A stretch of DNA of 32,000 nucleotides from Methanobacteriaceae archaeon UBA587 (GTDB taxonomy: Archaea > Methanobacteriota > Methanobacteria > Methanobacteriales > Methanobacteriaceae): positions 62,851 through 94,850 of the forward strand of contig DATN01000008.1 of the NCBI GenBank assembly GCA_002504725.1, in the 5' to 3' direction. Shown here piece after piece: positions 10,808-27,954 of this stretch. The number at the start of each line of letters is the position of its first letter. The stretch's first letter is position 1. Under the pieces are notes generated by a model that did no database searches, had not been told where the DNA came from, and saw only the letters and a program-made list of their open reading frames with translations. The translations under genes and the position numbers were made by a program.

Positions 10808-10828
10808 TTATAACTTATAACTTAGAAG
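10808..10828. repeat. heptad array A: TTATAAC TTATAAC TTAGAAG (TTATAA hexamer on a 7-bp period)
   Basis: Read directly from the sequence. The array ends about 48 nt upstream of the parA start. Confidence 0.8.
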
Positions 10829-10875
10829 TATATTACTATAATATTATTATAAAATATCTGTGGGAGGATTTTTTC

Positions 10876-11646
10876 ATGGGAGAAGTAGTAGCAATCATCA
10901 ATCAGAAAGGAGGCTGTGGTAAAACCACCACTGCGGTTAATCTATCCACTGCACTGGCACTTTTAGATAAAAAAGTATTGGTGGTGGATCTTGATCCTCA
11001 GGGAAATGCCACCACTGGTTTTGGTGTGCAAAAATCCGATTTAGAGAGAACAGTATACACGGTGTTGAGTAGACAGGCTACCATGCGAGAAGCAGTAACC
11101 CCTACCATGGTGGAAGGATTGTTTCTGGTGCCCAGTAATATTTCCCTGAGTGGGGCAGAGGTGGAGCTCAGCCGGGAAATTGGTTTCCATTCTATATTAG
11201 AAGAAGCCCTTAAAGAGGTAAAAGATATATTTGACTACATTTTAATTGATGTTCCACCTTCCCTGGGGATTCTCACCCTTAATGCACTGGTGGCTGCAGA
11301 CAGTGTGATTATACCTATTCAGGCGGAATATTATGCCTTAGAAGGTATGGCAGATCTACTAAAAACAATTAACCTTGTACAAGAACGATTACAAAGTCCC
11401 GCTCCAATTAAAGGTATATTGATGACTTTATATGATTCCCGCACCAGACTAGGCCGGGATGTACACCACGAAGTTAAAAAATTCTTTGGGGAGGAGGAAT
11501 ACATCTTCAAGACCACCATCCCCCGTAATGTGCGACTGGCCGAGGCCCCCAGCTATGGAAAGCCCTGCATATTATATGATCAGGAAAGTACAGGTACCAT
11601 TGCTTACATCAAACTGGCCCAGGAAATGGTTAAACTGGAGGATTAA
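10876..11646 (+). CDS. parA: ParA/Soj/SegA-type partition ATPase (deviant Walker A)
   Basis: 256-aa ORF with IINQKGGCGKTTTAVNL (KGGxxK[ST] deviant Walker A), DLDPQGN and ILIDVPPSLG motifs. GGGAGGA SD upstream. Confidence 0.9.
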   Translation: MGEVVAIINQKGGCGKTTTAVNLSTALALLDKKVLVVDLDPQGNATTGFGVQKSDLERTVYTVLSRQATMREAVTPTMVEGLFLVPSNISLSGAEVELSREIGFHSILEEALKEVKDIFDYILIDVPPSLGILTLNALVAADSVIIPIQAEYYALEGMADLLKTINLVQERLQSPAPIKGILMTLYDSRTRLGRDVHHEVKKFFGEEEYIFKTTIPRNVRLAEAPSYGKPCILYDQESTGTIAYIKLAQEMVKLED

Positions 11647-11648
11647 TA

Positions 11649-12158
11649 ATGGCCAAACGCAAGTCTTCCAAATCCAAAAGCACAGGTTTGGGGCTGGGTT
11701 TGGATGCTCTTATTAAAGCCAAAACTAAACCGGTTGAAGAGCGTGATGCTGATGGGGGTACTGATTTAATATTAGAATCGGATGAGGAGCTGGAGGTATC
11801 TGTCACCAAGAAGGAGGATGTTCCAGAAACTCCTAAAAAAAGAACCCGAAAATCTAAAAAATCCCCATCTAAGAAGTCAAAGACTCCTCAAAAATCTGCT
11901 GCTTCAGAATCTACCAAAAAATCCACTAAAAAAGATTCATCTGTATCCTCTGCTGATTCTCAACGGGTTGAGGCAGTTTTAACTGAAGTCCGGAAGAATC
12001 CCCGGATTAGTTTGTGGTCGGCTCGTTCTGCTGCGGTTCTCAGGTACCTTAAAAAGACACAACCAGAATTCAGTATCAGTAATGAGGCATCAAAACTCAT
12101 TGAAGAGGCAGTTAAAGAGAAATATCCTGAAATATGGGATATTTTTGATGATATTTAG
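11649..12158 (+). CDS. candidate centromere-binding adaptor: ParB-like N-terminal tail + K/S-rich linker + probable RHH C-terminal domain (SegB/ParG-like role inferred)
   Basis: Starts 2 nt after the parA stop. The CDS itself is well supported. The function is inferred from the N-terminus MAKRKSSKSKSTGLGLGLDALIKAK, the TPKK/SPSKK/TPQK motifs and the strand-helix-helix pattern PRISLWS/ARSAAVLRYLKK/SISNEASKLIEEAVKEKY. Confidence 0.55.
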   Translation: MAKRKSSKSKSTGLGLGLDALIKAKTKPVEERDADGGTDLILESDEELEVSVTKKEDVPETPKKRTRKSKKSPSKKSKTPQKSAASESTKKSTKKDSSVSSADSQRVEAVLTEVRKNPRISLWSARSAAVLRYLKKTQPEFSISNEASKLIEEAVKEKYPEIWDIFDDI

Positions 12159-12243
12159 TCAAATCTCTTGTTTTTTTATTTTTTTAATTTTTTTCAACAA
12201 TGATTTTTTTCTATAATTCTTATCATTTTCCTATAACCGTCCC

Positions 12244-12293
12244 TTATAACTTATAAGTTATAACTCGCTAAGTGATAAGTTATAACTTATAAC
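12244..12293. repeat. heptad array B: TTATAAC TTATAAG TTATAAC tcgctaag TGATAAG TTATAAC TTATAAC
   Basis: Read directly from the sequence. It lies between the convergent ends of 11649-12158 (+) and 12362-13525 (-). Confidence 0.85.
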
Positions 12294-12361
12294 TAGATTT
12301 TTCTTTTGCCTGAAAAATTATTAAAAATTTATTTAAAAAGTTTTAAGGTCTTGAATTAAAA

Positions 12362-13525
12362 TTAATAGGCATCCAGGGCGGTCTGATAATTTCCCTGTAA
12401 CTTGATGAATGTTTCAGCCCGATTCACCGCCACACCTAATTTTTTCAAGTCATCCATTTTATGGAATGGTTTTTTTTGACGGATGGCAATTATACGACGG
12501 GCAGAAATGGTTCCAATACCCGGCACCCGGATAAGGTCCCGGTAAGATGCTGAATTTATTTCCAGGGGGAAAATATCCATTTCCCAGGCGGCAGTAATTT
12601 TAGGATCCTGTTCCACATCTAAAAGCCCATCTTCCTGAAAAACCAATTCGTCTAACTTAAAATTATAGGAATTTAGAAGTGCATCGGCCTGATAAAGCCG
12701 TCCTGCTCTTTGAGGATGAGGTCCGCTCTGATTCTCCAGGGGGGTCTCTTCCAGTGGCTGAAAAGCCGAAAAATAACTTCTCTTCACATCCAGTTTGTTA
12801 TATAACCATTTGGCGCGATTAAGAATATCCTCGTCGGTTTCATCAGTGGCCCCTACAATCATCTGGGTGGTCTGTCCAGAGGGGGCATACTTGGGATTAC
12901 GTTCATGGATATCTTTTATCCATTTTAAACGGCGCATAATGTCCTTCTGGTAATCTTTAGTGCTGGTAAGCTCGGAAAGCCCATCAGGGGTGGCTGCCTC
13001 AATATTCACACTCACCCTATCTGCCAGGGCCATGGCTCTTTTAATCAGATCTTTAGAAGTTCCGGGAATAATTTTAAGGTGTATGTAGTCTTGATAGCCA
13101 TGTTCTAGTCTTAAGATACGGGCCACTTCCACCACATTTTCCATGGTGGATTCAATGTCTCCTGAAATCCCGGAACTTAAAAATAAGCCATCCACCAACT
13201 TGCGCTGATAATAATTAAGAAATACTCGAGTTAATTCTTCAGGAGTAAGTTCCATACGAGTAAAATTCCTTTTACTATGATTAACACAGTATTTACAGTC
13301 ATTACAACACTTATTACTCATTAAAACCTTGAATAGGGGTACTTGACACCCATTACTCCTGGTACTATAATATATTCCTGGTAGCTGGGGAGTGGATTGT
13401 TTATGATGATTCACATAATCACACAGGTCGTACTGAGCAGTATCACTTAAAACCTGCATTTTGCGCATGGTATTCATTGAAATATAATCTGTCTCCCCAA
13501 CTATAATTGTGTTATGGTAGACCAT
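12362..13525 (-). CDS. radical SAM protein with C-terminal helix-hairpin-helix (putative DNA modification/repair radical SAM family)
   Basis: CNDCKYCVNHS (CxxxCxxC), N-terminal SDTAQYDLCDY and C-terminal LIRVPGIGTISARRIIAIRQ (HhH). The true start may be an internal Met (about 13477 or 13468). Confidence 0.7.
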   Translation of the reverse strand: MVYHNTIIVGETDYISMNTMRKMQVLSDTAQYDLCDYVNHHKQSTPQLPGIYYSTRSNGCQVPLFKVLMSNKCCNDCKYCVNHSKRNFTRMELTPEELTRVFLNYYQRKLVDGLFLSSGISGDIESTMENVVEVARILRLEHGYQDYIHLKIIPGTSKDLIKRAMALADRVSVNIEAATPDGLSELTSTKDYQKDIMRRLKWIKDIHERNPKYAPSGQTTQMIVGATDETDEDILNRAKWLYNKLDVKRSYFSAFQPLEETPLENQSGPHPQRAGRLYQADALLNSYNFKLDELVFQEDGLLDVEQDPKITAAWEMDIFPLEINSASYRDLIRVPGIGTISARRIIAIRQKKPFHKMDDLKKLGVAVNRAETFIKLQGNYQTALDAY

Positions 13526-27214: not shown

Positions 27215-27249
27215 TTATAAGTTATAAGTTATAACTTCTAAGTTATAAG
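27215..27249. repeat. heptad array C: TTATAAG TTATAAG TTATAAC TTCTAAG TTATAAG
   Basis: Read directly. It lies 10 nt beyond the stop of the ModE-like gene and about 70-105 nt upstream of the ferredoxin start (minus strand). Confidence 0.85.
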
Positions 27250-27258
27250 ATATAATAA

Positions 27259-27954
27259 TTAAATTTTAATTAAAGATAGTGATGTAGCTTTAAATCCCAC
27301 AAAAACCTTTTTTTCAAGACTTAATTCCAATTTTTCCCAAGAATATTTTGTAATATCTACTAAAACCGTAATAACAGGGTCTAAGGCTACTTTAAGTCTT
27401 ACCATTTCGTTTTTTATTTCCATACTCACTATTTTTCCTTCCACAATATTCCTCACACTGGATTCTTGGGGCTGGAGCATTATGAAAATATCTTCTGGGC
27501 TGATTAGAATTAAGACATTGTCTCCTTCCTCAAAGTTTTCAATTAGAGGAAGTAAAACTTCGTTTTTTCCAATTTTAATATTCATTACCCGATTATCTAA
27601 ATCTAGAGAACTTACCTTACCTTCTATTTCATTCAAATTGGAGTGTTTTTTCAGTATCTGGTTTAGTTTAGTGAATTCTCTAAGAATTAATTTTCCTGTA
27701 TCTGAGAGTTCACTCCCTCCCCCGCCCCCTTTACCTCCTCTTTGGGTAAATACCACTGGAGTTCCCACGATTTTCTCTATGACTTCAATGTATTTTAGAG
27801 CAGTTCGGTAGGGAACCCGGGACTTTTTAGAGGCTTTAGTAATAGAACCACAGTTATCAATGCTTTTCAACAGACGAAATTTTTTTTCGTCCATGAGCAG
27901 ATATTTATCTCCTATCTGCAACTGATATTCGGGGATATCTCTAGAATTAGTCAT
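27259..27954 (-). CDS. ModE-like regulator: N-terminal HTH (ModE N-terminal type) + C-terminal TOBE domain
   Basis: SITKASKKSRVPYRTALKYIEVIE...QRGGKGGGGGSELSDTGK (ModE-type HTH with the Gly-rich turn). The C-terminal half is beta-rich and TOBE-like (RNIVEGKIVSMEIKNEMVRLKVAL). Confidence 0.7.
   Translation of the reverse strand: MTNSRDIPEYQLQIGDKYLLMDEKKFRLLKSIDNCGSITKASKKSRVPYRTALKYIEVIEKIVGTPVVFTQRGGKGGGGGSELSDTGKLILREFTKLNQILKKHSNLNEIEGKVSSLDLDNRVMNIKIGKNEVLLPLIENFEEGDNVLILISPEDIFIMLQPQESSVRNIVEGKIVSMEIKNEMVRLKVALDPVITVLVDITKYSWEKLELSLEKKVFVGFKATSLSLIKI

Follow-up and report, generated by a model that had tools for sequence, protein, structure and literature searches.

A probable chromosomal segAB partition cassette with TTATAA-C/G heptad arrays in a Methanobacterium-like archaeon

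A 32,000-nt stretch of the genome of Methanobacteriaceae archaeon UBA587 (the window; all coordinates are positions within it) carries two adjacent genes, segA, for a 256-amino-acid (aa) ATPase with a deviant Walker A motif, and segB, whose 169-aa open reading frame (ORF) starts 2 nt past the segA stop codon. Both are where an initial annotation, made from the sequence alone, had placed them, and so are the tandem TTATAA hexamers, each followed by a single C or G, that it had noted on the two sides of the genes (10808-10828 and 12244-12293; Table 1). Array A lies 48 bp 5' of the segA ATG and abuts a TATA-like sequence. Arrays B and C lie at convergent gene ends, between the T-run that follows segB and the 3' end of a radical-SAM/HhH gene; an 8-bp spacer (TCGCTAAG) separates them and puts the blocks out of register by +1. 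The initial inventory was right about these flanking arrays and missed a fourth, array D, which lies 15 kb downstream of the cassette between a ModE-like gene and a minus-strand operon of a small ferredoxin gene and hisB. We consider it probable that this locus serves a Methanobacterium-like archaeon as its chromosomal segAB partition cassette, with SegB sitting on the arrays as centromere and operator and a ParB-type tail driving SegA.

Table 1. Features of the window, with positions, strand and basis of assignment
Feature	Position	Strand	Basis
Array A: TTATAAC TTATAAC TTAGAAG (2 perfect units and 1 degenerate)	10808..10828	.	Sequence, Tandem Repeats Finder
Probable core promoter and leader, TATA-like AT-rich run tatattactataatattattataaaata	10829..10875	+	Sequence reading
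Shine-Dalgarno GGGAGG	10862-10867	+	Sequence reading
segA, 256-aa Soj-type ParA ATPase	10876..11646	+	Pfam AAA_31, structure-sequence alignments
segB, 169-aa candidate centromere-binding adaptor: ParB-type tail, disordered linker, SegB ribbon-helix-helix (RHH) domain	11649..12158	+	SegB homology
SegB residues 1-25, basic stretch then ParB-type ParA-binding motif	11649..11723	+	Tail profile, homologue conservation
Motif GLGLGLDALI within SegB tail	11685-11714	+	Sequence
SegB residues 26-104, acidic then K/S/T-rich low-complexity linker	11724..11960	+	Alignment, AlphaFold2 (AF2) predicted local distance difference test (pLDDT)
SegB residues 105-169, predicted DNA-binding RHH domain: strand KNPRISLWS, loop TQPEF and two helices	11961..12155	+	Homology to solved SegB
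T-runs straight after segB, probable archaeal oligo-T terminator	12171..12194	+	Sequence
Array B: TTATAAC TTATAAG TTATAAC	12244..12264	.	Sequence, Tandem Repeats Finder
Array C: TGATAAG TTATAAC TTATAAC	12273..12293	.	Sequence, Tandem Repeats Finder
Radical-SAM/HhH gene, convergent, 3' end facing arrays B and C	12362..13525	-	Pfam
Array D, 6 units: TTATAAG TTATAAG TTATAAC TTCTAAG TTATAAG ATATAAT	27215..27256	.	Sequence, Tandem Repeats Finder
ModE-like gene	27259..27954	-	Neighbour of array D

The 169-aa protein matched no Pfam (E ≤ 1) or NCBIfam family, ParBc and any helix-turn-helix (HTH) included, in line with the initial impression that it holds no ParB/Srx or HTH domain. It has 669 homologues, and all of those with a source name come from Methanobacteriales. 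An alignment of 24 homologues resolves two conserved modules joined by a hypervariable linker, and the profile of these 24 has a sole meaningful match in the PDB, Sulfolobus SegB, through the C-terminal module (7DUV, 4e-12; 7DV2, 7e-9). BLASTP against the Sulfolobus protein likewise gives 37% identity over 60 C-terminal residues (E 6e-13). The strand KNPRISLWS follows the published SegB signature K/R-D/N-P-K/R-I-G/T-V/L-WS (Charles-Orszag 2025 preprint), with Ser at the published G/T position and Thr there in orthologues, and segA is paired with segB at every orthologous locus. By homology, then, the 169-aa protein is a member of the SegB family.

The C-terminal domain of Sulfolobus SegB is a ribbon-helix-helix. 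Two SegB dimers occupy each S1 site, one per half site, with the beta-strand in the major groove and base contacts from K52, W56 and K75, and in the crystal P72 of the alpha2-alpha3 loop stacks between neighbouring dimers to give a left-handed superhelix (Yen et al. 2021, PMC8682754). W56, the DNA-contacting S77 and P72 are kept in the window protein as W123, S144 and P139 and are invariant in the alignment, and K52 and K75 are replaced by R119 and S142. With two of the three base-reading residues changed, the comparison fits an altered DNA specificity. The strand itself, NPR[IV][ST]LWS, occurs in 120 of the 120 closest homologues. The initial reading of this C-terminus as an RHH agrees with its homology to the solved Sulfolobus domain, and we infer that SegB is a dimeric RHH protein.

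Between the modules, the linker is hypervariable in length and sequence, has AF2 pLDDT values below 50 over most of its length, and is absent from the 99-aa Methanothermobacter orthologues. The acidic stretch and K/S/T-rich segment initially described are present. We rejected the minor-groove role suggested for S/TPKK motifs in the linker, given that it is a hypervariable, low-confidence spacer that is not conserved and that Methanothermobacter lacks. As a separate observation, a distant SegB branch (150-210 aa; P0221, P0254, P0255, P0262, P0272 and others) carries an RHH-like module (..KITLYS..LRYF..TIP.F) at the extreme N-terminus, with no ParB-type tail and a second matched stretch.

SegB begins with MAKRKSSKSKSTGLGLGLDALIKAK. 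A basic run followed by [G/A/S]LGxGL[D/E][A/S]LI is found in 116 of the 120 closest homologues, and the four exceptions appear truncated. These first 25 residues had been likened to bacterial ParB at the outset. A 26-position profile built from 14 Methanobacteriales tails only, searched against 177,635 distinct PDB sequences (E ≤ 10), supports the likeness with its one match, Thermus thermophilus Spo0J/ParB residues 1-17 (MSRKPSGLGRGLEALLP; E 0.013); phmmer with a single 32-aa tail gave no match in the PDB. The Thermus Spo0J N-terminal peptide reportedly stimulates the ATPase activity of Soj. Work on M. xanthus defines the same tail motif and its pocket on ParA. From the profile match and the conserved pattern, the SegB tail is assigned as a ParB-type ParA-binding motif.

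The adaptor was initially called a hybrid, but its tail is no exotic feature. With a mixed SegB profile, an exhaustive HMMER search recovered 294 representatives of the family (50% clustering), and the best 150 of the 294 were classified by N-terminus: 65 are ParB-type, 14 Sulfolobales-type, 18 have the RHH at the N-terminus or are truncated, and 53 are unclassifiable, mostly fragments or mis-started ORFs. The ParB-type tail is the commonest N-terminus in the SegB family and not an oddity of this genome; it also occurs in metagenome-assembled genomes (MAGs) of Archaeoglobales. Arg is central in 32 of the 65 ParB-type tails (LG[RKLM]G[LIVM]..), Lys in 27, Met in 4 and Leu in 2, roughly the R/K split of ParB, where this residue is Arg or Lys (~50% K). 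Sulfolobales SegB proteins start with MSELDFLLKKK. MAFFT pairs their LDFLL with LDALI, so the two types of tail may have a short core in common, but they lack the GLGxG part.

The partner ATPase has the deviant Walker A motif NQKGGCGKTT at residues 9-18 (core KGGCGKT) and matches the Pfam families AAA_31 (7e-65) and CbiA (1e-24). It aligns end to end (residues 2-254) with M. xanthus ParA (8RAY, 1e-71), Thermus Soj (1WCV, 1e-61) and H. pylori Soj (1e-60), whereas Sulfolobus SegA (7DUT) reaches only 3e-20 over the first 165 residues. The ParB-binding pocket residues on M. xanthus ParA were identified by Thanbichler and co-workers. The invariant ones, Y81 and E117, correspond to SegA Y61 and E97, which are invariant in 12 of 12 SegA sequences, and the DNA-binding R238 corresponds to R219, as read from the window alignment to 8RAY alone. 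On these alignments, the window ATPase is a chromosomal Soj-type ParA. Tail and pocket also covary weakly across the 12 loci: tails with a central L or M pair with SegA Thr or Ser at the position of M. xanthus E82 (SegA position 62), tails with a central R or K pair with Ser, Asp or Glu, and acidic residues are confined to the R/K group. The sample is phylogenetically confounded, and the covariation is suggestive.

Within the window, the double heptad TTATAASTTATAA (at most one mismatch) occurs 11 times against 0.12 expected, with a maximum of one in 100 dinucleotide shuffles, and all 11 matches fall within arrays A to D. Tandem Repeats Finder reports period-7 arrays at 10808-10824, 12243-12294 and 27215-27255. 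The gene order IlvD ... ThrRS-segA-segB-radical SAM (convergent) ... MTD is kept from Methanobacterium to Methanothermobacter, and a TTATAAS array (S, C or G) lies just 5' of segA in six of six orthologous loci fetched by protein identity (L005-L009 and L130), among them Methanothermobacter, M. congolense, M. alcaliphilum and a 25%-GC relative. In M. congolense and M. alcaliphilum arrays also directly follow segB, and the M. congolense locus (L007) repeats the two-block, phase-shifted downstream layout of B and C.

The same picture holds in an unbiased metagenomic sample of 80 SegB loci (64 clusters after de-replication at 95%), in which upstream counts were limited to loci with enough upstream DNA. 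An array of three or more units lies within 600 bp upstream of segA in 48 of 51 loci (39 of 41 de-replicated), most often beginning 54-58 bp before the segA start, and within 400 bp downstream of segB in 50 of 77 (42 of 62 de-replicated). In the de-replicated set, arrays number 1.97 per kb in the segAB flanks versus 0.05 per kb in the remaining 561 kb of the ±10 kb surroundings, a 40-fold difference; block-shuffled controls gave no arrays. Array D has a counterpart in nine other loci, directly 5' of a ferredoxin homologue and 5.8-9.7 kb from segB, and is a conserved secondary site. No further arrays occur in the 10 kb on either side of the window in the same genome. In one 29%-GC lineage (L176, also L180), about 20 triple-heptad arrays surround segAB within 6.5 kb. 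They include a 52-bp repeat present 6.5 times in a 1.1-kb non-coding tract after segB, each copy with a triple heptad (L176:10940-11271), and, further upstream, a 79-bp repeat present 2.5 times with triple heptads (L176:6880-7083); this layout is similar to that of plasmid iteron-type centromeres. The arrays, found at the orthologous operons and concentrated at segAB, are conserved cis-elements of segAB. Two outcomes that the initial annotation had named as refuting its reading, orthologous operons without arrays and arrays spread over unrelated regions, were not borne out.

Could the arrays be no more than neutral microsatellites, with a 7-bp unit, in an AT-rich genome? Runs of a homogeneous kind, (TTATAAC)n or (TTATAAG)n, are common in Poribacteria, Bacteroidota and IMG/VR contigs, and three perfect heptads, sought across 185,579 species genomes, occur in at least 120 stretches, mostly bacterial microsatellites. 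Among the matches listed, however, 11 of 13 SegB-anchored arrays mix C and G spacers, and 107 of 114 arrays in other taxa are homogeneous. The SegB-anchored arrays also favour alternation (17 CG/GC transitions versus 5 CC/GG), an arrangement that centres each hexamer in a palindrome of 8 bp (GTTATAAC or CTTATAAG). Array position is conserved across genera and GC contents, and shuffled sequence does not reproduce the arrays. The microsatellite explanation is effectively refuted.

Methanobacteriales contribute 14 of the triple-heptad matches listed. Seven touch segAB, five (Methanobrevibacter) adjoin a HAD-hydrolase gene whose block is, in related loci, 5-11 kb away from segA, a distance inferred via synteny, one is 23.7 kb from segB on the same contig, and one is beside a terminase gene. 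A scan of IMG/VR returned 38 stretches, nearly all with homogeneous spacers and none beside segAB. Separately, the homogeneous microsatellites, found among the non-archaeal loci of L010-L129 and in L134-L171, reach about 20 loci in Poribacteria, with several per MAG, and also recur in Bacteroidota and IMG/VR contigs; such TTATAA repeats often adjoin other 7-bp repeats such as (CCACTAA)n.

If the arrays belong to segAB, what binds them? Chromatin immunoprecipitation sequencing of Sulfolobus SegB in vivo yielded the motif 5'-TCTAGA S TCTAGA-3' (Kabli et al. 2025). The window unit, TTATAA-S-TTATAA, has the same grammar: a palindromic hexamer, a single C/G spacer and a 7-bp period. The window lacks the Sulfolobus S1 site itself, GAAGAGTCTAG (at 2 mismatches, 5 matches versus 5.8 expected). 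The Sulfolobus study reported no convincing sites near segAB in Thermococcus and predicted 'quite different' euryarchaeal motifs; Methanobacteriales were not analysed (Kabli et al. 2025). The binding of one RHH dimer per half site, the Pro72 contact between dimers, the invariant SegB strand and a DNA unit that is invariant across genera of 25-50% GC together point to SegB as the array-binding protein. By analogy with Sulfolobus, the TTATAAS arrays are very probably SegB binding sites.

The alternative is that another factor binds the arrays or that they are structural DNA (decoys for TBP/TFB, nucleoid-protein sites or origin-associated repeats), linked to segAB by synteny alone. TTATAA does resemble an archaeal TATA element, and the synteny of ThrRS, segA, segB and the radical-SAM gene is strong enough that co-inheritance alone could hold neighbours together. 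Yet the arrays follow segAB even when segA has another gene on its upstream side (DUF1786 in L006 and an unknown ORF in L007, against ThrRS elsewhere), their hexamer-S-hexamer architecture is the motif type defined experimentally for SegB, and the invariance of the SegB strand fits that of the DNA unit. No Cdc6/Orc1 gene lies within 10 kb at any locus examined; in M. thermautotrophicus, segAB is presumably about 40 genes from oriC/cdc6-1. We regard this alternative as improbable.

The preferred reading, a partition cassette with SegB on the arrays, suggests how the system might work. SegA, given its full-length homology to Soj and its conserved DNA-binding arginine, would bind the nucleoid as an ATP dimer. 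One SegB RHH dimer would read one palindromic TTATAA hexamer, and dimers would load cooperatively, 7 bp (~240 degrees) apart, touching via the proline of the TQPEF loop. An array of 3-8 heptads would then nucleate a wrapped, left-handed nucleoprotein filament, as in Sulfolobus SegB and omega. The clustered SegB tails could engage the SegA dimer interface through its ParB-binding pocket and speed up ATP hydrolysis, and this tail-triggered hydrolysis would couple array-bearing DNA to a SegA gradient in a ParABS-like manner. Array A, which abuts the segA promoter, would also be an autoregulatory operator; in other lineages the upstream array sits between a TATATA element and the Shine-Dalgarno sequence. 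Arrays B and C, in a transcription-free gap between two terminators, and the distal array D may be additional segS sites.

Several observations weigh against this reading. Every functional step proposed for Methanobacteriales SegAB is drawn by analogy. The central tail residue of the window SegB is Leu (GLG-L-GL), and M. xanthus ParB R13A keeps ParA binding and loses ATPase stimulation; stimulation in the window system may work differently or rely on the upstream KRK. Two semi-conserved acidic pocket residues, M. xanthus E82 and D110, are T62 and S90 in the window SegA. The AF2 monomer models the RHH strand of SegB as a helix (mean pLDDT 62.8), as is expected for an obligate-dimer fold, and Foldseek of this monomer model against the PDB found no meaningful match. 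Bracketing of segAB by arrays is not universal, as the Methanothermobacter and Methanobrevibacter loci have no downstream array; in Methanothermobacter no intergenic space follows segB. Promoter overlap is seen for array D and for some of the upstream arrays, and a D-type site lies 5' of ferredoxin-hisB in 10 genomes.

So, are the arrays centromeres or only operators? The overlap of array D and the upstream arrays with promoters makes an operator-only function the most serious rival: SegB would be an autorepressor and a regulator of a few promoters, such as that of fer4-hisB, with no centromere role, and SegAB possibly a chromatin organiser. Upstream arrays abut or overlap the core promoter at every locus, and ParG, omega and similar RHH partition proteins are also repressors. 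The Sulfolobus sites, too, might be regulatory (Barilla 2016, PMC5120986). Against this, no promoter is to be expected at the convergent gene ends that hold B and C and their counterparts in 42 of 62 lineages, and the 1.1-kb non-coding tract of 52-bp repeats is more centromere-like than operator-like. The partner is moreover a complete Soj-type ATPase whose ParB-pocket and DNA-binding residues are intact. We judge an operator-only role unlikely and retain the partition cassette. The initial SegAB/type-Ib-like interpretation, of an RHH adaptor with a ParB-like activating tail and of the arrays as cis sites on both flanks, finds support in the homology, tail-profile and array-conservation tests.

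Whether the cassette might be the partition module of an integrated plasmid or virus was also considered, as SegB-like genes occur on element-like contigs (L172 from IMG/VR, and L173, beside Cas4-like and MazE genes) and one array is beside a terminase gene (L129). The window operon, however, is embedded in housekeeping synteny (IlvD, prismane protein, TrmB, ThrRS, CbiA, MTD, hisB) common to Methanobacterium and Methanothermobacter, and the window flanks examined hold no integrase or viral genes. This origin seems very improbable, and the cassette is better read as chromosomal.

The three contigs have features of their own. The IMG/VR contig L172 (UViG_3300030493_000264, classed viral; L172:937-2468) has a ParA gene and a 258-aa SegB-like gene with the tail MAKRSVMGKGMDALF and the strand ANPRISLWS. 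In place of TTATAAS arrays, which are absent, it has a palindrome, TGAGTCATGACTCA, similar to the GAGTCTAGACTC site of Sulfolobus, with about 10 copies inside the linker-coding part of segB and one across the segA start; this could be a centromere that lies within segB. On the Archaeoglobaceae MAG contig JAVQRY010000025.1 (L173:960-1050), a ParA gene accompanies a SegB with the tail MRKLGKGLDAIL and the strand NPRVVIWS, and just two heptads (CTTATCACTTATAAC) precede the ParA gene. The SegB family, and perhaps the heptad motif, reaches Archaeoglobales and element-like contexts. In the Methanobacteriaceae MAG L129, the array at 1268-1309, TTCTAAG (TTATAAG)x3 (TTATGAG)x2, is 1.9 kb from a terminase large-subunit gene (phrog_2, 1e-22); it is either a microsatellite or a host-centromere-like array carried by a virus or provirus.

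A few other features of the window and its surroundings deserve mention. Archaeal RNA polymerase terminates at oligo-T, the basis for the probable terminator after segB. With their hexamers being palindromic, arrays B and C together form a perfect 15-nt inverted repeat (12251-12265 and 12278-12292, 12-nt loop), and 12251-12292 could form a cruciform, or a hairpin in any read-through transcript. An Rfam search of the whole window gave no match. About 3-10 kb left of the window start (L133:12418-20059), some 10 consecutive small minus-strand ORFs (66-361 aa) lie beside an ArgRS gene. They match no Pfam family and could represent a gene cluster specific to the lineage or an integrated element.

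What is known of chromosome segregation in archaea comes almost wholly from Sulfolobales. The conservation of SegAB in Euryarchaea, variations on the theme and the nature of archaeal centromeres were listed as open questions (Barilla 2016, PMC5120986). SegB orthologues next to ParA genes in Methanobacteriales had already been reported (Barilla 2016, PMC5120986; Charles-Orszag 2025 preprint), and the combination is in that respect less new than first supposed. The preprint describes the N-termini of these orthologues as 'lineage-specific domains of unknown function' and puts forward a transfer from Sulfolobaceae (Charles-Orszag 2025 preprint). In the literature searched we found no description of the TTATAA-S arrays as candidate Methanobacteriales segS, conserved secondary site and higher-order repeats included, of a ParB-type SegB tail that dominates the family, or of a partner ATPase that is canonical Soj type instead of Sulfolobus-type SegA.

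The locus supplies a candidate for the predicted divergent euryarchaeal motif, simple conserved TTATAA-C/G arrays, and with it a candidate centromere for a whole methanogen order, testable in the tractable or medically relevant Methanothermobacter and Methanobrevibacter. It also ties the SegB tail to a bacterial ParB motif whose docking site on ParA has just been mapped, and offers a concrete hypothesis on how two unrelated centromere-binding folds drive the same ATPase. More tentatively, and at somewhat less than even odds in our estimation, the ParB-type motif may be the ancestral or majority SegB N-terminus and Sulfolobales SegAB a derived outlier, with Methanobacteriales chromosomes carrying a 10-25-kb TTATAA-S centromere zone around segAB. 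Were this so, SegB would in essence join a ParB tail to an RHH body and partner a bona fide Soj, and the proposed Sulfolobaceae-to-Methanobacteriales transfer would be reversed.

The closest known relatives are the SegAB systems of Sulfolobales, which have the same gene order, with segB at once after the ParA gene, and a SegB whose RHH domain is homologous to that of the window protein (37%; W56, S77 and P72 common to both) and likewise accompanied by an unstructured tail and a hypervariable middle region. Their sites are likewise 7-bp-spaced palindromic hexamers with C/G, upstream of segA and at secondary positions. The hexamers differ, however (TCTAGA in Sulfolobales versus TTATAA in the window), as do the base-contact residues (K52 to R, K75 to S). 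Window-type sites are intergenic and consist of 3-8 tandem units, reaching 52-bp higher-order repeats, whereas those of Sulfolobus are 13-bp pairs, ~83% of them intragenic. The tails are basic plus GLGxGLDALI in one case and MSELDFLLKKK in the other, and the window ATPase is far nearer to bacterial Soj (1e-61 to 1e-71) than to Sulfolobus SegA (3e-20), whose dimer is atypical.

Bacterial ParABS offers a complementary likeness. The window ATPase resembles Soj/ParA from end to end, with the equivalents of Y81 and E117 and the DNA-binding Arg kept, and the adaptor begins with the ParB N-terminal motif, a basic stretch then LG-R/K-GL-D/E-AL-I/L. Lacking a ParB/Srx CTPase or HTH domain in Pfam and NCBIfam searches, the window protein is not a ParB family member; there is no parS, and the RHH domain would read heptad arrays in its place. 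With no CTPase domain, CTP-gated clamp closure is not what juxtaposes the tails, so that dimerisation and array clustering must do so.

Type Ib plasmid systems (ParF-ParG of TP228; delta-omega of pSM19035) likewise combine an RHH dimer with a flexible N-terminal ATPase-activating tail, and in them the centromere doubles as operator. The likeness is architectural and mechanistic only, as the window protein has no Pfam match to ParG or Omega_Repress (E ≤ 1). The ATPase is a 256-aa chromosomal Soj type and not a ParF type, and the tail is ParB-type, not ParG-type. Unlike those plasmid systems, the window system appears chromosomal and vertically inherited.

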